Shown here: positions 10,101-55,640 of the stretch, one piece after another
How the letters are laid out: each line of letters opens with the position of its first letter
Position numbering within the stretch: position 1 is the first letter of the stretch
Assembly (NCBI GenBank): GCA_964057225.1
Contig: OZ059895.1
Span: 9,424,001 to 9,488,000, forward strand
Direction of reading: 5' to 3'
Length of the DNA: 64,000 nucleotides
Source: Auanema rhodensis
Taxonomy: Eukaryota; Animalia; Nematoda
Program-made: the position numbers and the translations under genes
Notes under the pieces: generated by a model
Seen by the model: the letters and a program-made list of their open reading frames with translations, nothing else
Told to the model about the DNA's origin: nothing
The model's database searches: none

Positions 10101-12904
10101 TACACTTGTAAAGATGTTAAATACAAACCTTGAACTTTTCTTGCTTCTTTTTTAGCTGAGCCTTCTTCTTGTCGTTAGGTGGAACCCAACAACAAGAGTG
10201 CTCTTCAGGCTTTGTCTGACCGCACTTTTTGCAGAATTTTTCATTGCAATTGTGCGGTCTATCAGCACGGACCATGTGATAGTGATCACACGCCACACAT
10301 GTCTGAATTTAAGCTTGTTATGTACAACTTTAAATTTTCACAAAATACCTTGAATTTTCGGCAGGCTTTTCGCAAATGCCTATCGAAGCATTGATGAGTT
10401 TTAAACAAAACTCTACAACTATCACACCTCACGCTACTCTCAACCACATTCCCCATCGCATTACAATTATAGGTGTGGCATTTTTTACATTTGGCTTTAC
10501 ATCTATGCAACACTGTATTGTAAGATAACTTACAGTGTTGACATATAATACCATCAAAAATTTTCGAACGACTACCAGCTGTAATACAATCATAGTGATT
10601 ATTTCGGTAACCTAGTGTTACCAATTTGCTAGCCGCTTCATTAAATATTTTCTGGATAGTGTACATACGCTGTCCAGGCGGTCTAGCATATACTACAAAC
10701 TTATAGTTTGCATTACAGCTGGCAATAATGTTTAAATGAATTAAATTATAATTTGGTAAATCTACAGAAATACCACACCTATTTAATAAATTGATATGGT
10801 GTGGCTGATTTGGCAATAAGATGTAATTGCGACGAAGGTTTTGCAGCCTTCGCTTCTCATCGCCATCTTCAGTGGCCAGCTCGTCAGCTTTCCACATTCC
10901 CACAACTGCTGATCTAGCCAGACAATGTGAGTCAGTGTTGGCAATGGTTCCAGGTATTTTGAGTTCGGGGTCAAAATAAAACCCAACTCTACCTTCACCG
11001 GGCATCAGGCTTGGCTGCGCTGGCCTTTCATCAAACACATACATCTCAATATTCATTGCCTGGCTGATTACAGCCTCTCGTTTTGATTGCTGCACCTTGC
11101 TGATGGCATTCATAATGGCTACGCCATCCAGATGCTCCCTTCTACGAAAGTCCATAAATATGGAGCCCTTTTCAAAGGAAGGGTGCTCAATTGATAAACA
11201 AAATAAGGCTTTTTGTTTATCAGGCACACCGCTTTCAGCAAGACAACGATCAAGGAATTCGTTGAATAACCGCGGCATGATAACATGCATTGGTTCATCA
11301 ACATTTTCCAAGTGTGGGAACGTGAGCGATCGAACGACCACATTGGTAAAACGACCGGTGCGTTTTATGCGCCGGTGTGACCACTATAATAAACAACATT
11401 TATAACAGTTTACATGCTTTTTTATTTTTTTTAAAGTTTAAATAAAAATAGTTTTAAGAATATATATGAATTGTTTCATCTTTTGCTTATAATTATTATG
11501 TCTCTTTGTTTGTTATAGTCGTTATTTTTTATTTAATTGAAATGGTTTCAAATATATGTTTAGTTTGTTTCAAAACGATTAGAAAAATACAAAATATTTA
11601 AATGTTTCAGTTTTTGAGCATCAATTTTTTTTTTAATGTTTAAAAATTTAATAAATAAAAATTAAATAATAGTAGAATTATAAAATTGTTTAAAATATAT
11701 ATAAATGAAAGAGATGAAGTGAAATGGCTTAGAAAATACAAAATATTTAAATGTTTCAGTTTTTGAGCATCACGATATTGAAATTTAAATGTTTTTTAAT
11801 GATTAAAAATTTAATAAACGAAATTATGAAAAAGTGATAGAAATTTAAACTTGTTCAAGATATGTGATTAAATAAAAGAGATGAAGTGAAATGGCTTAGA
11901 AAATATAAATCTGTTTCATGTTTCAGTTTTTGAGCATCACAATATTGAAATTTAAATGTTTTTTTTTTAATGATTAAAAATTTAAAAAATGAAATTATGA
12001 AATAGTGGTAGAAATATACAATTGTTTAAAATAGATGGAGTGAAATGGTTTAGAAAAAACAAAATATTTAAATGTTTCTGTTTTTGCGCATCAAAATATT
12101 TAAATTTAAGTGTATTTTAATGATTAAAAATTTAATAAATAAAAATTAAATAATAGTAGACTAATAAAATTGTTTAAAATATGGGATTAAATAAAAGAGA
12201 TGAAGTGAAATGGTTTAGAAAATACAAAATATTTAAATGTGTCAGTTTTTGAGCATCAAAATATTTAAATTTAAGTGTATTTTAATGATTAAAAATTTAA
12301 TAAATGATATTATGGCATGGATTTGGGATAAGATTTAATTTTATTTTTCAAAAAGCCTCCAAATGTATGATGATTTGTTTAAAAATAGATGGCAGAATTC
12401 AAAATTGTTCAAGATATGTAATCAAATAAAAGATATAGAGTGAAAAGAATTGTAACATAAAAAAAAAAAAGTTAAAAGCTCGTACCTTTATTTGACAAAA
12501 ATCGTTGAAGGATGAACCGCCTCCTAATTGTTCTCCACTAGTTGATGGCATCTCGGGATTCCATTCTCTGAAAAAAAAAATCATGCTTTTTCATTATACG
12601 ATAGCTTACTCATTATCGCTGTCATCCAAGGTGATAACTTCAATAACCCTTGATTACGAGGGACCACTATTGGAAGTGGTTATTGCGGGGTCACAGAGCT
12701 CAACTCCACCACTCTCGGTAAGCTTTATGCGCTTACTAAAAAAAAACAACAAAGATGTATATTTTAAAAATATTGTTAAATTACCTGAGTTGATAAATTT
12801 CCTCATAATCGAACCCCAACTCTTCACATACACGCTTATAACTGAAAATAAATATTTTAATTAAAAAAAAAAGCTAGGAAAAAACACAACCTGTTAGCAG
12901 CCAT
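7154..12904 (-). pseudogene. Protein-primed DNA polymerase B (intron-containing), frameshifted
   Basis: ExoI FYDFET, ExoII AHNGSRFD, ExoIII YCRTDV, motif A DFCSLYP, motif B KLQLN|SVWGK, motif C YT|DTDS. Exons reconstructed from GT/GC-AG sites starting at ATG 12904 (MAANS...). Confidence 0.92.
11570..12305. repeat. About four degenerate ~170-bp tandem units in pPolB intron 4
   Basis: Repeated core tttcagtttttgagcatc...attaaaaattt...gatgaagtgaaatgg. Same unit as the satellite at 60440-64000. Confidence 0.85.
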
Positions 12905-19356: not shown

Positions 19357-21410
19357 AGTAGAGAGCCATGCCGAATTTACTAACCACGCCCCCAAACAGT
19401 TGCTAAAAACATACTTTTGAGGGCGTCAGCTGCTAAAAACATACTTTTGGGGGCGTCAGCTGTCAAAATCATATTTTCGGCGTCAGCTGTCAAAAATATA
19501 CTTTTCCTCCCGATGCAGGCTCTCGAGCCTGCGCATGGATCAAAATGCATGATTTTTTTTTTAAATCATATTTAAATTTCTTTTTTTTTAAAATATTTTT
19601 AAAATTATTTCTTTTTAAATGTATTTTAAAATTTTTTTTTTTTAAATGTATTTTTAATAATACTTCTTTTCAAATGTATTTTAATATTTATATGTTTCTT
19701 AATTGTATCTTTAAAACTGAATAAATTATTTCTCATGTATATTTTTTTTTATTTATTTAAATATTTTTAAAAGGTAATCAATATGTTCACCGTACCGTTA
19801 CATATTGTTTCTTCCCGTCTTTTCATTGTCGGAAGATATATGTACTTCTACCTTGTTCCTTAGGTAGGCAGACCCGAACGCCCCGATTTCCTTATTAAGA
19901 CAAATACTTAAAGAGAAAAGGATTCATTATCAGATAACAAGAAAATACAATATAAGAATTACATCAAGAAAGAATATAAAGAGATATAATTAAGTATTAA
20001 ATAGAGTATATATATAGATGATATAGAGATGAGATTCACATGACTATAAGACAACCTATCTGGGTTAGGCCAGAAGCAAGAGTGCCATGTGTGTCCCATG
20101 TTGTAGGCGGGGCTTGTTCAGGCTCACGCTATTTGAATAGCGCGCACATGTTTACGATGTTCTTGCAGATGTGACAGTACCTCTATGGGTTAATCAATGG
20201 AACTCATATCGAAGGTTAATTCGATAAGAAGTAATAAATATTTAAACTAAATTTAATGAAACACATATCGAAGGTTAATTCGATAAGAAGTAATAAATAT
20301 TTAAACTAAATTTAATGAAACACATATCGAAGGTTAATTCGATAAGATCGTTAAAACAGGTGCACTACACATGTACCACATGGCAAAAGTTTTGTTCATT
20401 AAAATATGATAAATAGCAGTACAGAACAAGTACCCATAACGCTAAAGAATACTTACTATGCCAAGGGGTCATGAGTATATACGAATATTTTCAAACTTTT
20501 TTAGTATCAAAAATGTTACTTTAAAGTAATTGTTGTTGTATCCTTAATAGTTTATAAATGTTCTGATAGCTAATGTATTTCATAACTATGGCTAAGAATA
20601 GAATAAATATTTCGTAATATATTTATTGAACAATAAATTTTCAATTAAAATTAGAACATGTGTTAACATTTTGTAAGAGTTTCTTTTTTACAAAGTGTCT
20701 GGAAATGTTGTACTTGTAATCGGATGTGTACAAGTCTGTTTTTCGCAACAATCCTGTGTTTCCTCAGTAGGATCCAACACTTTGAATTAGTGTTTCCTAA
20801 ACTATAAAAATAAGAGTGTACCACAGCTGTTATAATAAAAATATGGATACAATATTAAACGATCCTATTGTAATCTTTCACAATTTTGGATGACAGTTGT
20901 TATTGTATAGGGACTTGTCACAAATGAGTTGAATTATTGTTAAATATTTGGACTTACGAAATCGAATGCTGTAACAAGTAATTAATAAGCGGATAGTTTA
21001 CAGGTTGTTAATCCGGCAACTGTTGGCGCAATCGGTGTATTTTAGCGCATTCGGCAGCTGTTTGCGCAACAAACTGCTAATTAATGTATAAATGCATATA
21101 TTTGTTGTAATATATAACAAATAGGAAAGCCGCATACAGCAGTGCCATGTGGTACATGTGTAGTGCACCTGTTTTAACGATCTTATCGAATTAACCTTTG
21201 ATATGTGTTCCATTGATTAACCCATAGAGGTACGGTGAACATATTGATTACCTTTTAAAAATATTTGAAAAAATAAATAAAAATATACATGAGAAATAAT
21301 TTATTCAGTTTTAAAGATACAATTAAGAAACATATAAATATTAAAATACATTTGAAAAGAAATATTATTAAAAATACATTTAAAAAGAAATAATTTTGAA
21401 AATACATTTA
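19357..21410. mobile_element. Internally deleted mini-Maverick (subfamily A), right TIR truncated
   Basis: AGTAGAGAGCCATGCC at 19357. Inverted TIR sequence at ~21150-21410. No coding genes. Confidence 0.75.
19796..20176 (-). mobile_element. Solo LTR (381 bp) with GTAC target-site duplication
   Basis: Interrupts the Maverick TIR sequence CACCGTACCTCTATGGG, with GTAC at 19792-19795 and 20177-20180. Minus-strand termini TGTCACA...TGTAACG. Matches 29137-29517. Confidence 0.88.
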
Positions 21411-27904: not shown

Positions 27905-29136
27905 AGTAGAGAGCCGTGCAAAATTTACTAACCACGCCCCCAAACAGCTGTCAAAAACATACTTTTGGGGGGCGTCAGCTGCTAAAAACATACTTTTGGG
28001 GCGCGTCAGCTGTCAAAAACATATTTTTGAGCGTCAGCTGTTAAAATCATATTTTGGGATAATGGTTCATGGATTCTCCTTTTTTAAATTTAAAAATCAT
28101 GATTTAAAGCATGATTTAAATTTTTTTTTTTAAATCAAATTTAAATATGCTTTTTTAAATGTACTTTAAAAATCATGATTTATAGTATGATTTTTTTAAA
28201 AATTAAATTTTAAATTTGTTTTTTCAAATGTATGTATATGTTTTTAATTATTTTTAAATATATTAAGTGAAAATAAAAATTATAAATTTTAAATATATAA
28301 ATTTGTTTTTAAATTTTATTTATTTATCATATTTATTAATAATATTTGTTTACTTTTTGTTTATTTTTTATTGTATTGTGTTTGTACTTTTTTATTTGTA
28401 TTTTGAAGAACAATAAAATTTTTGCATGTATATCGTTTTGTTCACCGTACTTGTTATGGGTAATTCAATGGAACACATATCGAAAGTTAATTCGATAAGA
28501 ACGATATGAAATACCAAAATTTAATGGAACACATATCGAAAGTTAATTCAATAAGAACGATATGAAATACCAAAATTTAATGGAACACATATCGAAGGTT
28601 AATTCGATAAGAACGACATTAAATTATTAATTTTTGAAATTACAAATTGTTATTAATTATATTTATTGTAACAAGTAAAGGTTTCAAATTATAATAAAAG
28701 ATTAGTTTTAAACTTTATTTTACTAATATAACAATACAATAACTAAATAGAGCACACATTGAAGGTGAATACGACGGGATTAACAAACAGTTGCGCTGAC
28801 CTCAATGAAACGCATAAAGTTAATTTAATAAGAAGGAATAACAAAAATTGATCCGACGGGGACAATAAAAACAGATGTATTCAATATGCTTATTTATTTT
28901 AAAGTTTATCGCAACTGCTAGTTTTGACAGCTGTACCTAAATCCATGTTACATAACAAATTACAATGCCAACAGCAATGTGTAGACTGATGTATTCATTA
29001 TATCAAGGTACAATGGCTGCTAATAGGTTGTGTCTTTTTGATTATTTGTTTGTAAACTTTTTCTTTTTTTAGTTATAAACGTTTATGTGAAGAGCTAGGA
29101 TTTGATTATGAAGAGATTAATCAGCTCAGGTAATTT

Positions 29137-29517
29137 TGTCACATCTGCAAGCACATGGTAAACATGTGCGCGCTATTCAAATAGCGAGAGCCTGAACAAG
29201 CCCCGCCCACAACATCGGACACACATGACACTCTTGCTTCTGGCCTAACCCAGATAGGTTGTCTTATAGCCATGTGAGTCTCATCTCTATATCATCTATA
29301 TATATACTTTATTTAATACTTTATTATATCTCTTTATATTCTTTCTTAATGTAATTCTTATATTGTATTTTCTTGTTATCTGATAATGAATCCTTTTCGC
29401 TTTAAGTATTTGTCTTAATAAGGAAATCGGGGCGTACGGGTCTGCCTACCTAAGGAACAAGGTAGAAGTACATATATCTTCCGACCATGAAAAGACGGGA
29501 AGAAACAGTATGTAACG
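29137..29517 (+). mobile_element. 5' LTR of an LTR retrotransposon
   Basis: 381 bp, TGTCACA...TGTAACG. Roughly 96% identical by eye to the solo LTR at 19796-20176. Followed directly by a PBS. Confidence 0.88.
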
Positions 29518-29530
29518 TGGAGGTTCCACC
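29518..29530 (+). promoter_or_regulatory. Primer-binding site, tRNA-Gln
   Basis: TGGAGGTTCCACC is the reverse complement of the eukaryotic tRNA-Gln 3' end (GGTGGAACCT-CCA). It lies immediately after the LTR. Confidence 0.85.
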
Positions 29531-30218
29531 TTGCTTACTTTACTGTTAATTTATTGACAGCAAGTTTACGAGACTTTTGGACTTAATTACCCAACAGTGA
29601 GGAGTAACCGAGCCGTGCACCATTATTTCCCCAAAAATTATTTTGGCTACCACTTCTCCTCCGCTCAACAAAAACTGGGAGGTGTCTGAGACGTTTGGGG
29701 AAACTATCAGACAATAGTTTTGACGAGCGTTACCTTTTTGTTATGCACGCGTGCTATTTTGATTTATTACTTTATGATGTGAATGTCCAGTGTGGCAACA
29801 GAGCTCACTTTTTAGCTGAGTTATTTGGAAGCTGGAGGCTGTTGGGATAATTTTATTTACGATTTTTGATTTTGATTCACATCCAAGGGTTCATCAGGGT
29901 TCCACTCCTGTTAACTCTTTTCTTATTAGTTCAGAGATAATAAGAACATTTAAATTCCTACCCACCCAAGTCCACCTTACGTCTGCCAACGTTTCCTTTT
30001 TCCTATATTATTGACAGATTACTGAATTTAAATTCCTATATCAATCTTAAATTGTCTTCTAAATCTTTTGAAATTAAAATAAAAATTATCTTTAATTACA
30101 CACACACTCGACTGGTCGACCGTTTAGGTTGTCTTGTCGTTGTCGTAGGGTAGCTTGAGGGTTAATATCTGTCTTCTGCCTCGTTGCGCACTCGTTTCCC
30201 CTTGGGAATCGTACCGCG

Positions 30219-31379
30219 ATGATGGAGTTGACCAACTTCTTCATCTGTGATGAAGAACACCCTATTTCTACCTGGACGAAAGAAAATTACGAACATGCTA
30301 TTGCTGAATTGGTCCAAAAAATCAAGTTAGGTCCAGACGACGTTCACTTTGACCATGTCACAAGTGAACCTTTCCTTAAACGTCTAACCTTACTTGCTGC
30401 GAGCGACCTACGCAAAAAACTATGCAATTCTTCCCGTCTTACCATCCGACTGAAACAACGATTGTCGGATGAAGAACTTTCTTACCTCAATGAAAATTTT
30501 TCGATGTTTAACATTGAAGTTGCTGGTAACGATCGAGGTCCGCATTACGAACTACGTGCCCTACGAACCATCTTGGGTCATTATATACGTTACCAGCTGA
30601 TTGAAACATCAATCGGAAACAATAACATCCAATTGTCAAAAAAGTACCACGTTTTGCTAAAGGATATAGGAAGTAATCCGTTACAACTTATAAACTCTGG
30701 TTGGACTTCTTTTCATTCTTGTAGCCCAGTTGTCAATGCAGCAGATATTCATCGTAACTGTTCGCAAAATACCCAGCTACAACGTATTCTTGACTTTGAC
30801 CCTGAAATGTTGGAAGTAAGAACTAAAATTTCCGATAGGATTCTGAAAGGAGATCAAATGTACACTTGTAAGAACATGTCGCAACATTGTCAGATAACAG
30901 CCCCATACATGACGTTTATCCACTCCATTTACGATATTTCCCCGGCTGATTTGTTGAAAATGTTAGAAAATACCAATGTGAAGAAGGCGTCCGGAGTAAT
31001 TTTATTTGATCCGATCGTTTTGTTCCAACAATCGGGAAAATTTTCGGAACTAACAGGAGTAAATTTTACTCGATACAAATCACACGGCGTTCAGTGGATA
31101 AAATTTCATTTCGACAACGATTCTCAAGATTCATATATTCATCGTTGGGACACGTACATTGCTATAATTGTATCGTTTGCGATGAGATCGCTTTCCACGG
31201 ACACAATGTACTCAATAATGTGTGCATTGTACATTCGCAATCATCTTGTATTTGATGTTGTCAGAAGCGACTATACTTTACCTAAACATAACGTGTCACG
31301 ATGCCTTCCGTTTGTGTCGCCCACAAACAAATTTTTACTTATGAGCCGTGTGATACAACAATATATGGATATAAAGTAG
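30219..31379 (+). pseudogene. Endogenous (+)RNA virus replicase, part 1: alphavirus-supergroup methyl/guanylyltransferase
   Basis: Motifs GPHYELRALR (His), KDIGSN, HSCSP..NAADIHR, CKN.SQHC and HSIYDI, as in virga/nege/kita-like capping enzymes. Intronless, with higher GC than the flanks. Confidence 0.88.
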
Positions 31380-32795
31380 TCATTGTTCCGATATATAATA
31401 ATTTATTTGAAAGAGTTTTATCCTATGCAATGATGGCTCCGGAAGAGAAATTCACATTTAGACAAGTGTTTACCATCGCTGGTTCGATGAATGTCCGAAC
31501 AATTATTAACGGTCAAACGGTTGAAAGTCGCCAACAACATTCGTATCGCGAATTGTTGTTAATTTCAGTAGCGGCGTATGCGACGGTATATTACGATAGG
31601 TACCAAACGTCACAGACAACACGAGAATTCACCGATTCAGCTTCTGATGGCCGTCACAGTATCCTTAGACGTATAGTCTCCCCTACATTTTATTCCGGAC
31701 TAAAGAGAATAACTCAGACGCATACTGTAGAACTGATGTCCGAAGACTGTAACAAATTTTCCTCTAAGGAAAAGTTAGATCCACTTGAGTTATCTGCCGG
31801 AGACACATTTATTGATAAGATAGTTGACTATCTTTGTACCGACAAAGGAGCATTTCCAATTAAAACTGCTGAACTTCTCGATTACGTTGAGTTTTCTGAC
31901 GTTATCCCTGAGGTGATCAGAGATGATACTACTCTCCTTGAAGATGATCCATGCGTGAAATTAATTTTTCCAGATTCTATCAACCCGACGGTCGTGAAAC
32001 CGAAGTTGCTTCCAGATATACACATTCCGGTACACAAAGTTGTTAACCCAACTGTCATCTCTTGCAATATTACATCTTGTGCCGAAGATTTGGAGACCGT
32101 TCCAACACCGGGTGATGGAGACTGTTTATATCATTCTCTTAGATTATCAGGTGCAACGAATGATTCGGTCGTTGTCATCAAACGTAAACTTGCGTCATCA
32201 GACAAAGCAACGCCAGAGCAAGCTAAACGGCTACTAAGTGCAGGATCTTGTATCGACGAGGAAACTTGGGGTACCTCAGATGACGTACCATTATTTTGCG
32301 GCGCCTATAATGTGGCTGTCTGTTTACATTCGTCAAACGGAAGTTGTATTTTGTATAAACCTGAATATTATACTTCAGACAAGCCTGTGTACCACATCGT
32401 TCATACGGTTAACCACTTCTCCGCGCTTGAAAAGAAAAGACCAAGTTCTAATGGTGTACAACTATCGAAGATATCCGATAATGTTCAAACCGGTGATTAT
32501 CCCACACAGCGAGTGAACGATTTAACAAAAGCGTACGGGACGTTTTTTGAATCCCTTCCAGCAGTCGTATATCGCAGACTAAAAGACGTAATATGTCCAA
32601 CCCACCCTTTAGAGAAAGGAGGCTTTGTTTGTAGATCCGCCATAAAACTATGTGAGTTATACGCTTTAGGGAGTATTGACCTCTATCACGATAAAATCTT
32701 TGATTTATGTAGCGGTCCGGGCGGATTCATTGAATTCGTACTTCAAAATTCTGCAGCCGATATACACACACTGTATGGAACAATTCCCGTGCAGC
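31301..32795 (+). pseudogene. Endogenous (+)RNA virus replicase, part 2: OTU-like protease + truncated FtsJ/RrmJ 2'-O-methyltransferase
   Basis: OTU: TPGDGDCLYHSL...WGTSDD...HTVNHFSAL. FtsJ: CRSAIKLCEL...IFDLCSGPGGF. Joins Maverick mCP sequence at 32796. Confidence 0.85.
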
Positions 32796-33380
32796 GAAAT
32801 AATACGCGGAATCAATGCTGAAGAGAATCATTTATCGCCAACAATACAAAGCCTCTTGGAGCTGAGGAAGAAAAACGTATAAAAAGTTTAATAGATAAAG
32901 ATGAAGATGTAAAAAAGTGGTATAATAATCGCCAGGCTGAGGCTAAGCTAGTGGAGGAAATGCTCGCAGACGCCACATTTCAGTTTAACAAAACATTGCA
33001 GCGCATAGAGTTTGTAACAAGTAAGCGGCTATTGTTGAATGCAACACTCGGTGATGCTCTCGCATATTTTCTTGGTTTTGAAAATAAAAACATCAACGAT
33101 ACAATAATAGCCAGGCGCCCCATTGATTTTTCAAATAACATTAATACAATGTATATATATTGTGATATTGTAAGCTAATTTACTTGCATGTTTACCTGTA
33201 CCACCTCCTACTGAATTTGGTAAAATGATTGCCAAAACATTTAATCCTATTCGTTATGTACCAATCACTAGACAAACACTCGATACCATACGTATTGAAA
33301 TTTTAGATGAATTTGGTCGTCCTATGCAATTTAATTATGGTTCTACAGTTGTTACATTGCATGTTAAAAATATGAAATAA
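32796..33380 (+). pseudogene. 5'-truncated minor capsid gene
   Basis: Resumes at GAAATAATACGCGG (EIIRG). Small deletion at ~33172. Confidence 0.88.
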
Positions 33381-33385
33381 ACGTT

Positions 33386-33850
33386 TTATTCAACAGTTAT
33401 ACAATACCACATTTTTATTTTCGAAGGTTTAAAAGATAGTTTAGGGCAGTTTTGTTTGTCGCTTGGCTCGTGTTGTGAATGTTCTCCGTCACTATTGCTG
33501 CGGCATCTTTTTGATTGGGTTGAATGTACAAACTCCTCAGCTTTTTCAAAGGGTTTGCTGGTATCATTTCCATCACCATCTTCACCATTCGTTCCATTAT
33601 TATTATGAATACGCCGAATATGACGCTCACAATTGAATCTTGTTCCAAAAGTTTCACTACAATGAGGGCACAAACGTCTACGAACACCATCCAAATGTCC
33701 ATATTTTTGAATAAAGTCAGCATTGCTGATATAATTGTTACATATGGGTTGAATCCCTGCATGCCTTTTCGAAACGTGATCACTAAAATGCTTGGTTGAA
33801 GAAAATATTTCCTTGCATGTACCACAATATTTGTTACATAAAAGTTCCAT
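33386..33850 (-). CDS. Two-C2H2 zinc-finger protein (longer C-terminus)
   Basis: Homologue of 26106-26435. Confidence 0.72.
   Translation of the reverse strand: MELLCNKYCGTCKEIFSSTKHFSDHVSKRHAGIQPICNNYISNADFIQKYGHLDGVRRRLCPHCSETFGTRFNCERHIRRIHNNNGTNGEDGDGNDTSKPFEKAEEFVHSTQSKRCRSNSDGEHSQHEPSDKQNCPKLSFKPSKIKMWYCITVE
33415..33762 (-). CDS. Hydrophobic overprinted protein
   Basis: Homologue of 26194-26532. Confidence 0.65.
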   Translation of the reverse strand: MQGFNPYVTIISAMLTLFKNMDIWMVFVDVCALIVVKLLEQDSIVSVIFGVFIIIMERMVKMVMEMIPANPLKKLRSLYIQPNQKDAAAIVTENIHNTSQATNKTALNYLLNLRK

Positions 33851-33891
33851 TAGAGGAAAATGAAAAACGACCACACGCAATCAACCCACTT

Positions 33892-34062
33892 TTATATAAT
33901 GAGCAATAATATGACTAGTGTTGTACAAAAGCCCAATCCCAATGCTATACCTTTAATAAATGGCACTGAAATACATTTCAACATTCTCCTGTATAAAGGC
34001 GCTGGTTTAGATTGCTCCAACGTGTATTTGACACATAATTCACAGTGACAAGGAATATTCAT
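33892..34062 (-). CDS. 56-aa CxCxxC microprotein with hydrophobic C-terminus
   Basis: MNIPCHCELCVKY...GIALGLGFCTTLVILLLII. Confidence 0.65.
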   Translation of the reverse strand: MNIPCHCELCVKYTLEQSKPAPLYRRMLKCISVPFIKGIALGLGFCTTLVILLLII

Positions 34063-34103
34063 AACTGACCACGTAATGTAGCAGGTTATTAATGACAAAT
34101 TTC

Positions 34104-34560
34104 TTATATAGTAGCCAATTTATAGTCGAATACTTTATGCATAAACGCTTTAATAAAGACATCATCATTTTTCAATAGTTTAAAAAAATGAACAAATGCT
34201 TTCAAATGAATTACCAGCCGACAACATTAGTATTACAAATACCACATAGCCACCACAAGTGTATTCAATTATGCGTTGTGGTTTGCATGTATTAATTTTT
34301 ACCTTTTTATATTTGGCCAGATAATTTTGAAAGTACTTGTTCATTTTATATCCCAAGCTACAGAAAAAATAGGCTTGCTTGTTACGGACAAAGATGACCT
34401 GCCAATGTGTGCCTGGCTTATCATGTGTGTCAGTATTTACGACAAGTGCAAAGTTTTTACGACGCGTTTTGGGTGGAGTATCAGCGCTATATACACCGAG
34501 AAATAGTTTCCGAGTGCTGGGGACAGATTGCAATAGTGATACTATTTCAGACGAATACAT
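34104..34560 (-). pseudogene. Adenain-like protease, late frameshift
   Basis: PGTHW and YTCGGY present. Stop at 34180 after a poly-T indel. Confidence 0.88.
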
Positions 34561-34611
34561 TTTAGTAGAATGATCTAGTGTAACTTTTGTATTGCGCGCG
34601 TGCGGTTCGAT

Positions 34612-35073
34612 ATGCCGCACCTCCTTTTGGATGTCAACTCTATTCAATGGACAACACTTTTAAATCAACAAATGGGTGGCGCCCCATTTAGCGGAATGAT
34701 GTTTCAACGTGGAATGCAGAGGGGTCATGGTTTGGGTGGTATTTTGGCAACTTTGGCATCATTTCTGCCACGCATCATTCAATCACCTATAGCCCAAAAT
34801 CTCATCAATGCCGGAAGAAACGCCTTATCCAGTGCTGTAAGCAATAGTCCAGTTGTAAATTCACCTCTTGGCGGACAGTTGCTGAAAACTGGTAATGAAA
34901 TTGTCGATGGGGTGCTGAAAGGCGATAATATCAAGGAAACTCTTGAAACAGCCGGCCGACAAGCTATACGAGATCTTACCGGCTTGGGCAAACGGCGACG
35001 ACGCAAAACCACAAAACCTCATAAGCGGTTGTGCATCACTCGTGAGCGTTTCACATTTAAATGGCTAAATTGA
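34612..35073 (+). CDS. Basic core precursor protein
   Basis: Homologue of 5228-5680. A small 3' deletion alters the last codons. Confidence 0.7.
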   Translation: MPHLLLDVNSIQWTTLLNQQMGGAPFSGMMFQRGMQRGHGLGGILATLASFLPRIIQSPIAQNLINAGRNALSSAVSNSPVVNSPLGGQLLKTGNEIVDGVLKGDNIKETLETAGRQAIRDLTGLGKRRRRKTTKPHKRLCITRERFTFKWLN

Positions 35074-36397
35074 TAGATTCAAAATCAGCACAAGCCCTTT
35101 TACCTAATATCAACTATGGTGATATACCAGCGTCGGCATCAGGTGTAGAGTCTACTCGTACTGTACAAGTCCCTTTGAAAAATACTTTTCTTCCTCAAGG
35201 ACCATGGGAATTTGTTATAGCTCAAAATTTCAAATCATTCCTCAATCTGAGAAGATGTTGGTTGAATGTAAAATTTAAAATTGTAACCACAAACGGTGAT
35301 CCAGTACCAGACAACCTTGTTTTTGCACCATGTCAACAATTTGCTGCCAGTTTAATACATTCGTATCATTTAAAAATTGGCGATGTTAGCGTGTATGACT
35401 CTACCGTGAATCATGCCTATAAAACATATATCGAGAATATTTTAATGTATAGCAACGATGTTAAAGAGAGCAAACTTGCCATATCAGGCTATTATGCTGA
35501 TAGATATATATATATAATGCATCCAGTGCTGGATTTAGAACGCGTCAAACGCTTGTAAAAAATGGCATATTGTGTGAGATGGCTGCTCCCGTCAGTATCG
35601 ACCTATTTAATCAAGAGCGACTGTTTGTAAACTATTCAAAAATGGAGCTTACTGCATATCCAAACCGTGATAACTTTTTAATTGACACTCTAGGCTGGAA
35701 TAATGAAAACAAGGATACTACATTAAAGGAGGAGTTTCCAAATTTGAAAGTAGATATCAGCGATGTACATTTGCTCATGCAAGAGTTTGATATAAACGCT
35801 GGATTAGCTATGGCTATAGAAGATAAACTCGCAAAGGATCGAATACACTACCTCATGACATCAGTGAAAATGCGCTCTTATTTCATAGAAGGAGGCCGCT
35901 TGGATTCACCTAATAATATATTATTCACGTCTCATACACCGAAACGTGTTGTAGTAGGTCTTGTTGGCGCACACGCCTATAATGGTACTTTTAAACATTC
36001 GCCATTCAACTTTAAACCGTTTGATTTGAAAAATATATACTTGACGCTCAACAATAGGGTAATACCTACCCGTCCTTATAATTTAGAATGGCGATCTTCC
36101 TATGCCACAGCATATATTGACATGCTCGAAGGTTTGGGACTTGGTCGTACAGATTCATCCAATGGTATTACACCAGCAATGTATAAAGCTGGTTTCACAT
36201 TTTTTGTATTTGATATTTCTCCTACTGTGCATTCGTCAGAGTTATTTGATGTTATACGACAAGGTAATGTAGCCTTGAAATTGGAATTTGGTCAACAAAC
36301 GCCGCAAGAGGGTTTATATGCTATTGTTTATGCAGAATATGACTCTATTCTTTCAATTGACAACAATCGTGCTCCATATATTGATACCAGTTTGTAA
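35061..36397 (+). pseudogene. Major capsid protein, frameshift in an AT dinucleotide run at ~35505-35516
   Basis: ORFs 35061..35558 and 35570..36397 are collinear with the intact MCP. Confidence 0.9.
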
Positions 36398-37260
36398 TGT
36401 ATGTAATAAACTTTTTAAAACATTTGATGAGAAGAATAAAATTTATTAATACAACTATACATAAAAATCTATAAATACAACCATATACAAATATACACGC
36501 AATAATAAAATTTATAAATTCAAATATACTAAAAATTATTCACAATAACCATAAGGTAAAGTACTAAAATCGTCTAGATAACAAAGTTTATCCATTACGA
36601 CCTTGGTACTCTTTGTCATGTCCATCGTGGATATGGAACCAAGCTGCCTCTTTAATAACGTTGTATTGGTTTTTGAAACCAATTTTTCTCCATCCATCAC
36701 GAGTCCTCGAACCAATCGCTCCATACTTTGATAGTTTACCACGGTGGCTGCCGTGTGGTCCAGCGTCTGTAATTTTAAAAGTTTCTCAATAATATATTTT
36801 TTATACTTTACCAGCTGCATTTACTAGCTCATAACTATAAAGTTTTGCAGCTGGTGAAACAAATTTGGTCATTGACCAACCATCGGGTATTTCTGAGGTT
36901 AGTTTACCTAACCATTCACCCTTCATATCCTCAATTGGATCAGGCTGATCGAGGCATTTTAAATAAATTAGAAAATCGGTGTCTAAATGATATACGTTTA
37001 AATTGTTTACAAAGTATAAAATTACCTGTATACACCAAGGGCTTATATGCAATTGTTTATGCAAAGTATGACTCTATTCTTTCAATTGACAACAATCGTG
37101 CTCCATATATTGATACCAGTTTGTAATGTATGTAATAAATTCTTTAAAAGATTTAAGAATAAAATTTATTAATACAACTATTTTTAAAAAATACATGTAC
37201 AATGATAAAATTTTATAAATACAAATATATACAAGATAAAAATTTATAAATTCAAATATA

Positions 37261-40200
37261 TTAAACACAATAACCGTAGGGTAAAGTACTATAATCTTGT
37301 AGATAACAAAGTTTATCCATTACAACTTTAGTACTTTTTGTCATATCCATTGTGGATATGGCACCGAGTTGCCTCTTTAACAAGGTTGTATTGGTTTTTA
37401 AAACCAATTTCTCTCCATCCATAACGAGTCCGCGAACCAGTCGCTCCATACTTTCAAAGTTTACCACTGATGCTGCCGTGTGGTCCAACGTCTGAAAATT
37501 ATAAAATTATTTGAAAAGTCAAAGCTCGTTCTTACCACTCCCTTTGCCTTTGTTACATACTTTACATCACCAGCTGCATTTACAAGTTTATAACTATAAA
37601 CTTTTGCCGCTGGTGACACAAACTTGGTCATTGACCAACCATCGGGTATTTCAGAGGTTAGTTTACCTAACCATTCACCCTTCATATCCTCAATTGGATC
37701 TGGCTCATCTAGGCATCTTTGATAAATTAGAGAATCCGTGTCTAAATAATGTAAGTTTAAATTGAATACAAAGTATAAAATTACCTGTATACACCAAATT
37801 CTTTCCAATTTTCTCCGTTGCCTTATACAATAGTAGCCTTGCATGAGCGGTTGTATAGGCCGCAATAGCTACGTTTGTAAAAGGCGGTGGTGCCAAATGT
37901 GAATCCTCTGGTACTGTTGTGCAGTACGCAACATTATCCACAATTTTGAACCCAGTGAGTTCCCTTGCAGGATCAGTAATGATCCTACCAATTTCTGGGT
38001 CCTCAACACCAATAATCTTGGTTTGGGCTTTATCAGGTCTTTGACCCATTTTACCCCAGACACTATAAGCAAATTTGTAATGTATTGTTTTTAAAAAGTT
38101 TACAAACCTATTTAGCTGCAGTTTGGCAATGCTACGCATGGCAGCATTCTTTTCAATTTTATTGCTCTCCAGAGCAACACCAGTGTTCTCCTCGTGCTCT
38201 TGGAGATAAATCACCTGTAAAATTCTATTTAATGTGATACTTTTATTAAAACATACCTTTTCTTCCTCTGTCATGTTTGGCCTTGGCCAGCCCGACGCCT
38301 CTTGTTTAATTTTTATGTACTTTTGTACAAACTCTTTAAACATGCCGCCTTGTTGCCATTCTTCCCAGTGCCACACCTCATGCACATGAAGCACTTTATA
38401 GCCACGTTGTATGGCACACTCGAGCTCAACATGTGTCACAGTTAGATGCAGCTTTCTAGCATTTACATCATTTTGGTGCTCACATGCTACATTTTTACTC
38501 TTGACTGCACAAGTGCGGCAGTTTGTAAAAATTAATTTACCGCCAATACGTGTGCCTAATACAGGGTACAGCAAATTTGTGGGTGCAAGCACGTCACATT
38601 TTACTAGCCCCTTGTATGGGCAACATGTCTCAAAGCTTTTGAAACCCTCAGTAATAACTTTGGGATTACCTACAGGGTAATAGGCATCAAAAGCGGTGAC
38701 ATATGGATATAGTGAACAAAAGTCCACATACTCGAGCGAGTATCTATCCGAAGCTTGTGCCAAAAGCTTATATGTCTGGGTGCGGCCACCGGTAAAGGCA
38801 TCTCTAGGTGCCAAGCGTGTAACAACATTTGTTTCACGCATAAATTTCGCCATTTCTTCATTGGCCGAAATTTGAGCATTAATTTCGTGCTCCCACACAG
38901 TGGTAACACTAATGCCTTGGCTTTGAATTGCTTCAAGCCTTTTCATGGTTTTATCATAAACCTAAATTTTTCAAATTAAAATGATTAAAAAAGTCACAAT
39001 TACCTCTTCCATTGTTTCACCATTTCTGCCTGGTGCTATAGCGCTCTTGTTGGTGCACTGGGGGCAACCATGGTAAATGCAACCATTAATCTACAAAAAT
39101 TTGCATTTTTTACATTTTTTACAAATTACTCACCTCATAGCCATGATTGGCAACGGGGTCATAAGCATCGAGTAGATAGCGATGGCCATCTACTCTCACT
39201 GCAAATTCGCCACCATTAAGCTTATGCATTAATGGGCGGCCCAATCCTTGTTCTAGCCATTTTAGATACTTTATGGCTATTATACTCTGCTTTTGACCGG
39301 CATAATAACCAGTCTCGGGCAGAATACCCACTTGGTTCTCTTTAATATGATTCATTTTCAACTGTAATATACTAGTTTTGAAAATGCTTGTATTTGAAAA
39401 AACTTGCCTGGAATAAAGAGAAACTGGCAAATGTCATACATTGTATGACAGGGTTCCAGCCAGTGGTGGCGGTTGCCAACTTCATGTAAACTTTCATACA
39501 GTTGGTTAAAATACGGACATCTGTCCTACAATATTCCAAAAGCTCTTCATCAAAATCAAACGCTCTTTGATTACGCTCTTCATACCAAATATTGAATGAA
39601 GCTAGGTCTTCTGCTTTCATTCTAGCAGTACAATAGTACTGTTTTGGTGGTAAAGATGGCAACACTTTGCCATAATTTATTGGATGATTATAAAGGTAAG
39701 GAAACTGTCCTTTACTCATATCAGGTACACCGAATGCCTTGGGTAATGCTGATAAGGGTAAAGGCACTAATAAATAACTATCTTTAAAATATAAATGATT
39801 AAATTTTTGACCTCTTAAAGGCTTGACAACCATGCTAATAATCTTGGTCCCATTTAAAATTGGATCAGGATATATTCCACGGTTTATCAGCCTAGACACC
39901 AAGAAATGTATGTCAAAGCGTGAACCATTATGCGCAATCAAAATTGCATTATCATTCTCAACAGAGTTGAGTAACCAATCAAGGAAACGATCTGTTACAG
40001 ACCATTCACTATCACCTTGTTGGTACCCAAAATGGCCCTCCTTGGTTGTGCATTTTTCGCATGAATTGGCGTCTATACAACTTTCACAAAATTTATTATA
40101 CACAACCATATTGGGCCATTGTTCATCTGCATATTCATGAACATTTGTACCGTTTTTTAACACAACCGTTTCAAAGTCATAGAATATAATCTTAAACAAG

Positions 40201-42318
40201 TAAGCATTACACTTGTAAAGATGTTAAATACAAACCTTGTATTTTTCTTGCCTCTTTTTTAACTGATCCTTCTTCTTGTCGTTAGGTGGTACCCAACAAC
40301 AAGAATGATCTTCAGGCTTTGTTTGCCCACACTTTTTGCAAAATTTCTCATTGCAATTGTGCGGTCTATCAGCACGTACTCTGTGATAATGATCACAGTT
40401 TTCACATGTCTGAATTTAGTCTTGTTAAATTTTATATAAATTTTTTAAATTACCTTAAACATTCGACATGTTTTTCTAATATGCCTGTCAAAGCATTGAC
40501 GAGTTTTGAACAAAACTCTACAACTATCACATCTTATGCTACTTTCAACCACATTTTCCATCGAATTACATTTTAAGGTGTGGCATTTCTTACACTTGGC
40601 TTTACATCTATGCAACACTGTTTTGTAAGATAATTTACAGTGTTGGCATATATCACCATCAAAAACCTGTGATCTACTACAAGTAGTAATACAGTCATAA
40701 TGATTATTTCGGTAGCCTAGTGTTACCACTTTGCTAGCCGTTTCATTAAAGATACGCTGAATAGCGTACATACGCTGTCCAGGTGGCCTAGCGTATACTA
40801 CAAACTTATAGTCTGTATTACAACTTGCAATAATATTTAAATGGTTCAAATTATAATTTGGTAAATGTACAGAAATACCACACCTATTCAATAAATTGAT
40901 ATGATGTGGTTGATTTGGCAACAAGATGTAGTTGCGACGAAGATTTTGAATCCTCCGCTTCTCAATTACATCTTCTGCTGCCTCTTCATCGGCTTTCCAC
41001 ATTCCCACAACTGCTGCTCTAGCCAGGCAATGTGTATCAGTGTTCTCAATTGTGCCAGGTATTTTGAGTTCGGCATCAAAATAGAAACCAACTCTACCTT
41101 CACCAGGCATCAGGCTTGGCTGCACTGGTCTCTCATCAAACACAAAGGATGGGTGCTCTATTGATAGACAAAATAGCGCTTTTTGTTTATCTGGCACACC
41201 ACTTTCAGCAAGGCACCGATCAAGGAACTCATTAAATAGCCGCGGCATGACAACATGCATTGGCTCATTAATGTTTTCCAAATGTGGGAACGTGAGCGAT
41301 CTAACGACCACGTTGGTAAACCGACCAGTGCGTTTTATGCGTCGGTGTGACCACTATAATACACACTTTTTATAATGGTTATTTAGTTTAGATATTTAGT
41401 TTAAATATAAATAATTTTTGTTTATAACTTTTAATAAATTTACTTTTCTTTAAATTATTTTTATATTCTTTTATTAAAAATAAATGGCATTTGATTTTTA
41501 AATATAAAGTTTTTTCTTTTATAAACATTTGTTAATGTTTAAAAATAAATGAAAAGGTCAAGATGGTGTTTTATTATTTTACTAGTTCAAAATGTTTGAA
41601 ATATTTATAATTTGTAAGAATTCAAAATTGGTTGAAAGAAAGATATATAGTGAGATGAAATGTAAAGATTTTAAAATGAATGCTGTTCAAAAGAATGAAT
41701 ATATAAGTTTCAAAATACTTGCAATTTGTTTGATAAAAGATATAGATTGAGATGAAATGTAAAGATGAGAGAGAGAGAATTTTATGAATGCAATTGAAAA
41801 AGAGATATAAATTTCAAAATGTTTTCAAAATATGCAATTGGAGCAAGAGAAAATTTCATGTTTCAAAAGATATTTTATGAAATGATATGTAAATAAAAGA
41901 TCGCACCTCTATTTTACAGACATCGTTGAATGCCGCTCCATATCCGACTTGCCCTCCACTGGTTGATGGGGTAGCAGGATCCCATTCGCTTAAAAAGAAA
42001 AAACTAAATGTTATAATTTTAATATCGCTTACTCATCACTGTCATCCAAGGTTATTACTTCAATAACCCTTGATGATGAGGGCCCACTGTTAAAAGTGGG
42101 TGATGTGGGCTCACAGAGCTCGATCCCACCAGCCTCGGTAAACTTTATACGTTTACTAAAAAACAAAATATATATAAAGATTCAAAATATTGTTAAATTA
42201 CCTGAGCTGATTGATTTCTTCATAATCAAATCCTAGCTCTTCACATAAACGTTTATAACTAAAAAAAGAAAAAGTTTACAAACAAATAATCAAAAAGACA
42301 CAACCTATTAGCAGCCAT
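37261..42318 (-). CDS. Protein-primed DNA polymerase B, 14 exons. Appears open after splicing apart from a ~45-codon in-frame deletion at ~41143
   Basis: All exo and pol motifs are restored by GT-AG/GC-AG splicing. Start MAANS at 42318. Confidence 0.85.
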
Positions 42319-43501
42319 TGTACCTTGATATAATGAATACATCAGTCTACACATTGCTGTTGGCATTGTAATTTGTTATGTAACATGGATTTGGGTACAG
42401 CTGTCAAAACTAGCAGTTGCGATAAACTTTAAAATAAATAAGCATATTGAATACATCTGTTTTTATTGTACCCGTCGGATTAATTTTTGTTATTAGTTCT
42501 TATTAAATTAACATTATGCGTTTCATTGAGGTCAGCGCAACTGTTTGTTAATCTTATTGTATTTACCTTCAATGTGTGCTCTATTTAGTTATTGTATTGT
42601 TATATTAGTAAAATAAAGTTTAAAACTAATCTTTTATTATAATTTGAAACTTTTACTTGTTAGAACAAATATAATTAATAACAATTTGTAATTTCAAAAA
42701 TTAATAATTTAATGTCGTTCTTATCGAATTAACTTTCGATATGTGTTCCATTAAATTTTGGTATTTCATATCGTTCTTATCGAATTAACCTTCGATATGT
42801 GTTCCATTAAATTTTGGAATTTTATATCGTTCTTATCGAATTAACCTTCGATATGTGTTCCATTGAATTTTGTATTTCATATCGTTCTTATCGAATTAAC
42901 CTTCGATATGTGTTCCATTGAATTACCCATAACAAGTACGGTGAACAAAACGATATACATGCAAAAATTTTACTGTTTTTTAAAATAAAAACAATACAAA
43001 CACAATACAATAAAAAATAAACAAAAAAAGTAAACAAACATTATAAATAAATATAATAAAGAAATAAAGAAATAAATAAAATTTAAAAACAAATTTATAT
43101 ATTTAAAATTTAAATATGATTTATATATAAAATTTAAAGTTTAAATATAGTTTATATATATAAAATTTAAATATAATTTAAATATTTAAAATTAAGATTT
43201 TTATTTTTACTTAATATATTTAAAAATAATTAAAAATATATACATACATTTGAAAAAGCATATTTAAATTTGATTTTAAAAAAAAATCATGCTTTAAATC
43301 ATGATTTTTAAATTTAAAAAAAGAGAATCCATGAACCATGATCCCAAAATATGATTTTAACAGCTGACGCTCAAAAATATGTTTTTGACAGCTGACGCGC
43401 CCCAAAAGTATGTTTTTAGCAGCTGACGCCCCCAAAAGTATGTTTTTGACAGCTGTTTGGGGGCGTGGTTAGTAAATTTTGCACGGCTCTCTACTAATAC
43501 T

Positions 43502-46225: not shown

Positions 46226-46652
46226 TCATGGTGTTATAAGAGCGCATCTAAAAAATGATAACATTGAAAATAAATAAATATGCAAGCTTATATTTATAGA
46301 CAAATTTTCGGGCTTATAATGACAAAACTCCTTCAAAAGACCCAACGCATCATTCCTTCCTCTACACTTTATACAGAGGCTGAAACAGTGATACTCGTCT
46401 ATAACCTGCAATGATTCCCTACAAGTTTTGCAGAGACAAATTGGTCTCATTAATACACTCCTTGGTGGAGTGCTCTCTCTCAGAATCTCCATCTGCTTTA
46501 TTGGTGAATCTAAACTAAAGATTTAAAAAATACAAGTTAAGGTTCATACCAAAACTTGTGAAATTTGGAGCTGGTGTGGGTGGTCGTGGTACTTCAGGTT
46601 CAGGCGATTTGCGCACAACATTTGTCACATCAGCAAGTACAGCACGCTTCAT
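46226..46652 (-). CDS. Accessory Cys-rich protein with an N-terminal D-box-like motif (one intron, 46510-46549)
   Basis: Spliced translation MKRAVLADVTNVVRKSPEPEVPRPPTPAPNFTSF|DSPIKQMEILRESTPP...CLCKTC...HCFSLCIKC. Confidence 0.55.
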
Positions 46653-49264: not shown

Positions 49265-50403
49265 CTTCCCCTCATCGTTCTGCCATCGCTCACTTCGCAG
49301 CTCAAGGCCTCTCTGCAGCTGAAATATCTCGAAGATTGGAAATTCCATATTCAACATGTCACAGGATCGTGAAACAATTTAAGGACACTGGTGATGTTAC
49401 TACAAAGCCGAAACCTGGAAGAACCCGTACTGTCAACGTTCCGGCCGACAGAAAAAAAATTTCGTAGCGAATTGAGAGAGATTCAACTGTGAGCATGCGG
49501 AAGATGGCTCATGAGCTCAATATTTCTACTGAACGTGTTCGTTTTATCGTAAAAAACAAACTTCATCTCAAAAGTTATCGGATAAGACGCGGACAAGCAC
49601 TCACAGAAACATCAAGAAAAAATAGATTTGAAAAATCTGTCAAAATCCGAGAATTGTTACGTTCCGGTCAACTGTCGAACATCCTATTCACAGATGAAAA
49701 AATTTTCACGATTGAAATGCTGCCCATTCGACAAAACTTTCGCCAGCTACTGACAAAAGATCAAGCTCACAGTAGCAGCAGGATTATAGCTACTCGTTCT
49801 CTTTTTTCTGAATCCGTAATGGTTTGGGGCGGCATAACCGCTAATCGCAAAACGCCGCTTGTTTTCATTGATAGAAATGTTAAGATCAATGCAGCAACAT
49901 ATCAGAAGGATATTTCGGAGAATGTACTGATACCGTGGATGCAACAAAACTACACAATTGGTCAAATGATTCTTCAACAGGATTGGGCACCAGCTCATAG
50001 CGCGAAGAGTACCATCATGTTCTGTCAAGAGCATTTTCCTGGATACTGGGGCAAGGACTTATGGCCTTCAAACTCGCCCGACCTAAATCCTTTTGATTTC
50101 TCAGTCTGGGGAGTGTTAGGAGCAAAACTGGAAGGTAAAACATTCACTAATTTGAATGACTTGAAAAGAGCTCTACTCCAAGCGTGGGACGAATTAGATG
50201 ACGACTATCTTCAAAACACTATAAACAGCTTCCGGAGGAGGATTTCAGCCGTTATCAGAGCCAAAGGAGGACATTTTGAAAAATCTTTGTAAATTAACTT
50301 TGTAAAATAATACCCTATGTATAAATAAAATTTGATTAAAAAAAACTGTTTTTGTTCCAAATATTAACATTCGAGAATCTCTCAATACTTCTCACCCACC
50401 CTG
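49265..50403 (+). mobile_element. 5'-truncated Tc1/mariner element, DD37D (maT) transposase pseudogene
   Basis: LFTDEK...QQDWAPAH...NSPDLNPFD, with 37 residues between the second and third D. Right end ...CACCCACCCTG followed by TA. Stop/frameshift at ~49466. Confidence 0.9.
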
Positions 50404-54846: not shown

Positions 54847-55640
54847 TAGTTGTAATCGGACCACAATTTTCTTCTGGCTGATTATGAACTTATTAATAGA
54901 CAACTTATCAACATTGATTTCTGTTCTGAACTTTCAATTATGAGAGGGCCAGGGGAATTAGATTTGAGAGTAGAACGTGCAATAGTAATTTGATTGCTAT
55001 CGATCAGAGAAGACAGGGTGTTGTCTTGAGATTTCTCGATAATAAGTTTCAATAGCAACAGAGGTTCAGTTGGGAATTCTGTTGACGTTAATGGCACTCG
55101 GAAGCAAAGGGCTCTTTTGGCACGGTAGAGGTACTTTGTCTCCTCTGATCGTAATTTTTGGCAATGACATGCTACATTGAGTTGGGAAGAGGTTGGGACA
55201 CAGGTAGAATTAGAATTACTAGTGTTTTGAAATGAATTAAAAGTTTGCTCTAATTTATCTAAGCGGGATTTGAAATCCGTTTCGATAGTTTTCAAGCGAG
55301 CCTTATGCGATGTGATAGTAATTTTCATACAGTTAAGCTCATTTTTTATAGCATTTGACAATTTTGAAAAAGAGTTCTCAAGGGACTTTGAGAAATTTTG
55401 AAGAGCATTTGTAAGAAAATCATTAGTCACAAAAGACATATTGAAAAATGAAGAGCAATAAGAAAGAATAAGAATAAACACTGGAGTGAGAAATAGAGAG
55501 AGAAAAAAAATAGAGAAGAAATAATGATAAAAAAAGAGATACGAGAAAGAGCGTACCTTGACAAAACCAGTCCGACGAAAATTCCTCGACAGAAGTGGAT
55601 CCGGATCTGAACCGTGGGAGGTCAACTGACGAGTGGGAGG
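54847..55640 (-). mobile_element. Duplicate LINE 5'/ORF1 fragment
   Basis: Near-identical to 1277-2071, with the same junction into the Maverick gene. Confidence 0.65.

Follow-up and report, generated by a model that had tools for sequence, protein, structure and literature searches.

A nege/kita-like virus replicase fragment fused to the 5′ end (LTR, primer-binding site and leader) of a retrotransposon within a Maverick element of the nematode Auanema rhodensis

Introduction

Capture of RNA virus sequence by long terminal repeat (LTR) retrotransposons is a known phenomenon; chuvirus genes, for example, are reportedly captured and spread by LTR elements in mosquitoes (PMC7642597). The present case, from the nematode Auanema rhodensis, is a new and unusually legible example, which lies in a 64,000-nucleotide stretch of contig OZ059895.1 (assembly GCA_964057225.1, positions 9,424,001 to 9,488,000, forward strand), called the window below and numbered from its first letter. 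Between 29137 and 32795 of the window, inside a Maverick (Polinton) element, the LTR, primer-binding site (PBS) and leader of a retrotransposon are followed by replicase sequence of viral type. The best explanation, to which a probability of roughly 0.8 is assigned, is that the insert, now broken, is a DNA copy made from the 5′ third of the replicase gene of a positive-strand RNA virus of nege/kita-like type, and that it stands in sense orientation after the LTR, PBS and leader of a high-copy retrotransposon, to which it was probably joined by template switching of reverse transcriptase (RT) in the germ line.

Among described systems, eBxnv-1 of the nematode Bursaphelenchus xylophilus is a nodavirus RNA-dependent RNA polymerase (RdRp) gene carried in an LTR retrotransposon, for which a copy-choice origin has been proposed (Cotton et al., 2016, PMC5177903). 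LTR-associated endogenous viral elements (EVEs) of Aedes have the same polarity as the LTR in 543 of 614 cases (10.1101/127498), and virus–LTR chimeras form during infection of Drosophila cells, the cloned cases being in opposite orientation (PMC5857290); chimeric reads in these insect systems are described as mapping mainly to LTRs (10.1101/127498; PMC5857290). Nematodes are also reported to carry orbi-like and partiti-like EVEs (PMC12548735; PMC11445058), insects are known to harbour virga/nege-like ones (cited in PMC7412485), and exogenous virga-like Martellivirales, one of them with an FtsJ domain, are described from nematode samples (PMC12770441; PMC11445058; PMC5563155). Literature searches turned up nematode EVEs derived from nodaviruses, orbi-like viruses and partitiviruses, no nege/kita-like nematode EVE and none inside a Maverick, a weak negative given that most subscription papers lay outside their reach.

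Results

The open reading frames derive from an RNA virus replicase

Two open reading frames (ORFs) in different frames, 30159–31379 (ATG at 30219) and 31292–32821, supply ~373 and 485 codons without internal stops, so that ~858 replicase codons with one frame break lie in sense orientation relative to the LTR. The first (piece 1) matches the Pfam family Vmethyltransf (PF01660), and the end of the second (piece 2) matches FtsJ (PF01728, E 2.8e-6) at profile positions 1–45 of 181 only. A HMMER search of 1.84 billion representatives gave 293 relatives, mostly 2100–2900 aa long and at best 35% identical; when 10 of the 11 best matches were scanned for domains (P0007, a fragment, was left out), viral superfamily 1 helicase and RdRP_2 were found in all 10 of these full-length relatives, FtsJ in seven and Vmethyltransf in six. 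Piece 1 aligns to residues 53–336 of the relative P0003, and piece 2 to residues 344–825 of the same protein (E 6e-37) and to 383–849 of P0005 (E 1e-45). Because both pieces are collinear with the same replicases of 2200–2550 aa, the alignment of piece 1 stopping and that of piece 2 starting at the overlap, they belong to one and the same replicase, make up its N-terminal third and are separated by one frame break in the overlap. The distance from the ATG to the first aligned point is 56–74 residues, compared with 41–88 in the relatives, which argues that the true viral gene start is included. Helicase, RdRp and structural genes are absent from the fragment.

The catalytic Cys and His of the OTU domain in piece 2 are invariant in the alignment (17 of 17 rows). 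The predicted structure has a mean predicted local distance difference test score of 61.7 overall and mostly 80–90 across the OTU domain, and the best Protein Data Bank (PDB) matches of this region in Foldseek are viral OTU domains (E 1.3e-6), all of which points to a viral OTU fold with an intact predicted catalytic Cys/His pair. The placement of OTU between the methyltransferase and FtsJ domains is conserved across the nege/kita-like replicases aligned (all 17 rows); the replicase descriptions consulted in negevirus papers give only four domains.

The best fold matches of the fragment in BFVD (Brejeira virus, Bemisia tabaci nege-like virus 3, Ohio negev-like virus 1 and blueberry necrotic ring blotch virus) belong to nege-like viruses and a blunervirus, the first match of piece 1 in an Atlas search is a Kitrinoviricota Vmethyltransf cluster, and the RdRp of the closest relative has its named matches, at 29–36%, in kitaviruses, Apis virga-like virus and Tanay virus. 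A quick midpoint-rooted methyltransferase tree of 67 rows, built from 60 of the 150 listed matches plus named relatives (excluding P0033, P0161 and P0162, and with no named nelorpivirus), places the fossil as a long branch beside the unnamed P0003 (support 86), in a 27-row clade (support 96) that contains no named row and falls outside the cile/higre, bluner and Tanay groups. No homologue of piece 1 was found among longer proteins by a word-based search, no relative by a scan of IMG/VR and no match by a PDB sequence search, which for piece 2 gave only weak OTU matches (E ≥0.06). By sequence comparison, the ORFs are assigned an RNA virus origin, in a previously undescribed lineage of nege/kita-like type (Martellivirales).

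A high-copy LTR retrotransposon lies directly upstream in the same orientation

Fourteen sequencing runs from four studies contain the window stretch wholly or partly; contigs of four of them (X1, X3, X6 and X10) were compared, with contig depth as a rough proxy for copy number. The viral sequence is joined directly, with the same polarity, to LTR-element sequence consisting of an LTR, a PBS and a high-copy internal region. The LTR differs from a solo LTR of the same family elsewhere in the window by 15 substitutions and no gaps over 381 bp; the solo copy is flanked on both sides by GTAC, and empty sites with one GTAC are present elsewhere in the window. The solo site is also compatible with a 5-bp duplication and a 380-bp LTR; a 381-bp LTR with a 4-bp duplication is favoured because an X6 contig terminates exactly at 29517 and because loose ends with mixed flanks precede 29137 in X3 and X6. 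A further LTR-like 15-mer at 46623 was dismissed as a chance match. As a separate observation, both LTR copies end in a non-canonical TGTAACG, yet the family is high-copy and the solo copy has a clean duplication.

Within the window the PBS is the sole match (chance 0.03 with one mismatch), and its 13 nt are the first 13 nt of the PBS given as complementary to human tRNA-Gln1, a human rather than a host reference (PMC1592299); LTR elements of Caenorhabditis elegans are described with such sites adjoining the LTR, as in Cer1, which uses tRNA-Pro (PMC3315495). Contig depth over the leader exceeds that over the viral part ~100-fold in X1 and ~185-fold in X3. Membership of the leader in a high-copy element was the main test set by an earlier note on this stretch, made from the letters alone, which had read the locus as a 381-bp LTR delimited by a duplication-flanked solo LTR, a 13-nt tRNA-Gln PBS, a leader and ~860 sense codons of RNA virus replicase with one frameshift, the whole inside a Maverick; these elements hold, as do the three replicase domains that it named, Vmethyltransf and FtsJ by profile and OTU by alignment and fold. 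Its description of the leader as AT-rich fails for the leader as a whole, which has 38% GC compared with 40% in the viral part, and only 30000–30099 drops to 18%. The age that it suggested, a recent insertion, is weakened to a relative one, the insert differing from the family majority by six LTR and seven leader differences and a 2-nt indel, or at least 1.3–1.6% among the rows listed.

The 5′ part of the leader folds no better than shuffled sequence (z −0.7), a metagenome scan with a leader pattern gave no matches, and Rfam gave none at E up to 1 within 29100–32850. In X6 and X10, which belong to one study, the LTR is present at high depth with no cover over the leader (and, in X10, none over the viral part); the filter used omits records, and this unexplained pattern was not used either way. 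At 29581–29601 (+) the leader also holds a spliced-leader-like motif, in which 16 of 21 letters, including a 12-nt exact core, equal the spliced leader 1 (SL1) primer printed in PMC3315495; this motif was found post hoc, no site in the 64 kb matches better, 7 of 2000 leader shuffles reach it, and it may represent a captured SL1 or a signal for translation.

Contigs without differences bridge the leader–virus zone and the right joint

A 2826-nt contig of X1 (30024–32849, depth 52) bridges both the leader–virus zone and the right joint with 0 differences, a contig of X3 (30024–32602, depth 8.4) bridges the leader–virus zone with 0 differences, and four pieces listed for X6 over the viral part likewise show none; the viral part is thus matched without differences in three of the four runs, from two studies. 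These contigs, assembled from DNA runs, identify the insert as chromosomal DNA with host-repeat flanks, and the two joints that the earlier note had placed at the start of the virus and at 32795 are real in DNA. The highly repetitive nature of the region, and joints read in short-read contigs only, would be compatible with an assembly chimera or contaminating viral sequence; such an artefact is nevertheless scarcely credible in view of identical contigs in three runs of two studies, two joints bridged in X1, and a frame break and truncation that are unlike a replicating virus.

The single-copy contig starts at 30024 in both X1 and X3, and single-copy and high-copy paths split at 30054. Nothing high-copy extends beyond 30053 in X1, and the depth in X3 requires high-copy cover to ~30095–30165, depending on contig overlap; path split and depth limits together bracket the leader–virus boundary (Table 1). 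The earlier note had suggested that a compositional switch near 30098 may mark the viral 5′ untranslated region: the low-GC stretch is there, and the boundary may lie anywhere in the bracket. Sequence across the zone (30054–30230) folds better than shuffles (z −2.5). The zone lies 50–165 nt before a start codon whose N-terminal length fits that of the relatives, which is where a run of RT off the end of the viral template would put it.

Table 1. Coordinates of the insert and of its host element in the window
Feature	Position	Strand	Remarks
Maverick/Polinton copy C	27905..43495		Carries the insert; itself inserted in older Maverick copy B
Left terminal inverted repeat of copy C	27905..29136		Interrupted by the LTR insertion after 29136
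381-bp 5′ LTR of a high-copy family of LTR retrotransposons	29137..29517	+	96% to the solo LTR; family ends in read contigs
PBS, tRNA-Gln type, 13 nt	29518..29530	+	Only match in the window
Retrotransposon leader, non-coding internal 5′ region	29531..30053 at least	+	High contig depth; no long ORF
Leader–virus boundary zone	30054..30169	+	(CA)5 tract at 30098; single-copy from 30170
Likely viral 5′ untranslated region	30098..30218	+	Left limit uncertain; rich in CpG, as is the viral part
Replicase piece 1: alphavirus-superfamily capping methyltransferase	30219..31379	+	Pfam stretch 30648–31343, PF01660, E 1.3e-18
Frame overlap of the two ORFs	31292..31379	+	Frame break within
Replicase piece 2: linker, OTU protease domain (~32075–32437), first quarter of FtsJ (from ~32624)	31292..32821	+	Last codons are Maverick DNA
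Deletion joint	32795..32796		Viral FtsJ passes directly into a Maverick ORF, midway along it; homology to Mavericks starts again at 32796
Solo LTR (same family) within a different Maverick terminal repeat	19796..20176	-	4-bp duplication and empty sites

The insert entered a Maverick terminal repeat and was later truncated

The window is made of nested Mavericks, with many direct and inverted copies at 85–98% identity in self-BLAST, and shows the hallmarks of these elements: terminal inverted repeats, a 6-bp duplication, and ORFs for pPolB, integrase (with chromodomain), ATPase and adenoviral-type protease. No capsid gene was confirmed by searches of the window ORFs. Maverick contigs reach ~100 times single-copy depth. 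Copy C, which houses the insert as the earlier note had proposed, has the termini AGTAGAGAG in inverted orientation at its two ends, is flanked on both sides by the 6-bp duplication AATACT, with a matching empty site in copy A, and contains pPolB and adenoviral-type protease matches; its terminal repeats are 86.5% alike. Homology of the left repeat to 43495–42195 and to two other copies ends exactly at 29136, whereas the empty sites continue, and a break at that position is what is expected of an integrase-made left end.

The right end is different: at 32795|32796 there is neither a 3′ LTR nor a target-site duplication, and set against copy B the Maverick is short of at least 3.0 kb, including integrase, ATPase and ~90 codons of the interrupted ORF, so that copy C lacks integrase and ATPase while both of its termini remain. 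The right end is a later deletion, which removed the 3′ part of the insert together with at least 3 kb of Maverick. A right end of this kind, the loss of any 3′ LTR and a window full of nested, rearranged elements would also suit a viral cDNA that integrated alone, by break repair or through a long interspersed nuclear element, with an LTR element landing upstream and a deletion joining its leader to the virus. This sequence of events is considered improbable, since leader and virus meet in sense at the 5′ end of the virus, just where the leader would end, and since a second viral strain is found at the same LTR family, also in sense.

A second viral copy is joined to the same LTR family

That second copy appears in X1 and X3 as a contig that matches 30702–31300 at ~85.5% without gaps, and in X6 over 30778–31300; it differs from the window at 87 (X1), 88 (X3) and 74 (X6) positions. 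Its depth of 357 (X1), 143 (X3) and 32–48 (X6) corresponds to ~7, 17 and ~7–15 times that of the first copy, the X6 single-copy depth of 4 having been set by eye from pieces at 3.1–6.6. A single long contig at such depth implies that members of the second copy are near-identical to each other. In three of the four runs it connects in sense orientation with the LTR at position 29225, 89 nt inside that repeat, across 10 intervening letters, an arrangement that may place the virus within the LTR or reflect an internal deletion.

LTR copies are 96–99% alike, whereas the two viral segments are only 85.5% alike, from which it follows that their divergence probably arose in the circulating virus and that there were two captures. 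The second copy is therefore likely to be an independent capture of a related virus strain by the same LTR family. A gap-count test is weak, the probability of 0 gaps in 87 substitutions ranging from <0.001 to 0.12 over six Maverick pairs. The second copy may have spread by retrotransposition, by tandem amplification or by carriage in Mavericks. A more far-reaching proposal, offered tentatively and held to be rather doubtful, is that one LTR family captured the 5′ part of the same virus lineage twice and that the second chimera, its virus sequence lying within the LTR, spread as a non-autonomous retroelement to ~7–17 near-identical copies, forming a self-amplifying heritable record of infection that possibly supplies antiviral small RNAs, while the first copy would be movable in trans through its intact Maverick termini. 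A (CA)n tract was also seen in both capture zones, at 30098–30107 in the first copy and at 29220–29225 on the LTR side of the second; it is a possible site of microhomology or slippage for a template switch.

A probable template-switching route and the points that weigh against it

RT makes the minus strand from right to left. The order LTR, PBS, leader, viral 5′ end and ORF is what copy-choice would yield if RT moved onto a viral plus strand and then back to the leader. Virus RNA and retrotransposon RNA would have met during reverse transcription, minus-strand synthesis would have moved to the viral plus strand and reached or approached its 5′ end, and RT would then have returned to the retrotransposon leader, leaving the virus where gag usually starts. 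The chimera would next have been inserted cleanly at the first base of the LTR into a Maverick terminal repeat, as its left end is observed to be; the deletion seen at the right then took away what followed in the insert, including any 3′ LTR, together with no less than 3 kb of the Maverick; and the frame break now seen between the methyltransferase and OTU parts completes the series. Shared polarity of LTR and EVE, a known signature of copy-choice as described for Aedes (10.1101/127498), supports template switching. A switch near the viral 5′ end, as the earlier note had it, is the likely route, and its exact point of 30097 is allowed as one of several.

Several observations count against this reconstruction. 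The leader–virus boundary is only bracketed, with 30097 among several allowed values; the locus has undergone at least one deletion, and a deletion could also be the source of the leader–virus joint. The 3′ LTR and polypurine tract are absent, whether lost or never present, so the full chimera is unreadable. The window holds no retrotransposon coding sequence and the parent gag-pol was never seen, so that both the position of the virus in place of gag and the retrotransposon superfamily, Ty3/gypsy or BEL/Pao, are inferred without it. The LTR 3′ end, in both copies (29511–29517 and 19796–19802), is not the canonical CA. Among the contigs listed (426 pieces are not shown) none bridges 29136|29137 and none spans the whole unit, and X1 may be the source sample of the window, which bears on the independence of its read support. 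The joint of the second copy is supported by only 24–30 LTR letters, at an 85% likeness setting that is prone to repeats.

The captured fragment is most likely a decaying fossil

Although ~858 codons run without a stop, at 1.3–2% neutral change only 0.8–1.9 stops are expected and the probability of none is 0.16–0.43, so their absence is unremarkable and selection is not needed to explain it. The fragment is most likely a decaying fossil. The open codons, the intact OTU catalytic residues and the identity of the viral pieces listed for X1, X3 and X6 to the window could be taken to mean that the gene has persisted on account of its product, with a capping-enzyme fragment or deubiquitinase serving as a dominant-negative protein or modulator of immunity; the frame break before the OTU domain, the truncation inside FtsJ and the unremarkable lack of stops make this highly unlikely, and with it the dominant-negative protein that the earlier note had envisaged. 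Any function would more likely be RNA-based than protein-based, with LTR-driven RNA feeding host small-RNA silencing, by analogy with C. elegans, in which LTR elements and integrated viral genes are reported to be silenced via ADAR and ERI-6/7-dependent small interfering RNAs (siRNAs; PMC7084138).

Other features of the window

The Maverick integrase has its best named matches in proteins of Caenorhabditis remanei and C. brenneri (up to 46%), and a FastTree analysis of 47 rows places it in a 10-row clade (support 99) whose other members are all four Caenorhabditis rows and five unnamed rows, the two fish rows falling elsewhere; this one gene of a mobile element thus points to a likely nematode host. 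At least eight mutually nested Maverick termini were noted between 1277 and 60449 (14742, 19357, 21990, 27905, 43495, 48232, 51021 and 52049), and Maverick terminal repeats are the targets of both LTR insertions. A strongly G-skewed 167-bp tandem repeat occupies 60430–64000 (at least 20 copies) and, inside a Maverick, 11600–12420 (a few copies), and seems to arise out of Maverick sequence. Two Maverick termini build a near-perfect palindrome at 50323–51509, with 486-nt arms that are 98% complementary and a 215-nt spacer. An ORF for a Tc1/mariner-like (IS630 family) DDE transposase lies at 49468–50292 (+), and ORF fragments at 238–693, 1312–2052 and 54882–55661 resemble a non-LTR retrotransposon by eye (endonuclease-like, ORF1-like); the two of these that were scanned gave no family match.

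Discussion

In germ-line fossils the series of LTR, primer site, leader and viral 5′ end is seldom preserved in order alongside a parent family that is still abundant, and the switch point would be mappable to the base given an assembled parent element. The locus records an undescribed nege/kita-like virus lineage in the nematode germ line. Should small RNAs derive from the insert, it would offer a handle on EVE-based antiviral memory outside insects. Two strains apparently caught by one element bear on element-specific capture and on continued mobility of the chimera, and this repeated, amplified capture is the part most worth following.

Comparison with known systems

The viral part shares with negeviruses and Kitaviridae-like viruses, as described in the sources consulted, the order of methyltransferase and FtsJ domains, followed by helicase and RdRp in the full-length relatives (PMC7412485; PMC7154061). 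It differs in being at most 35% identical to anything found and in forming a long branch outside the named kitavirus and Tanay virus clades. As in the nematode Maverick cargo described by Widen et al. (10.1101/2022.07.12.499685), foreign DNA lies near the integrase-side terminal repeat; that cargo is presented as intact host genes in largely complete Mavericks, whereas here it is broken viral cDNA in a Maverick that has lost integrase and ATPase.

With the Aedes and Drosophila cases the locus shares virus fused to LTR-element sequence, mostly of the same polarity in the accounts given, and a repeat-dense setting (10.1101/127498; PMC5857290). Those systems are insect hosts with demonstrated output of PIWI-interacting RNA or siRNA, whereas the present case is known from DNA alone. 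The likeness to eBxnv-1 extends to a positive-strand RNA virus gene within an LTR retrotransposon with PBS, in a nematode genome, and to a recent element that is near-invariant among carriers (PMC5177903). As reported there, eBxnv-1 lies between two LTRs with pol remnants and is a single copy whose parent family is gone (PMC5177903); here, by contrast, the 5′ end of a nege/kita-like replicase stands directly behind the leader, the parent family is high-copy, the unit sits in a Maverick, and a second strain has apparently been captured and is multi-copy.

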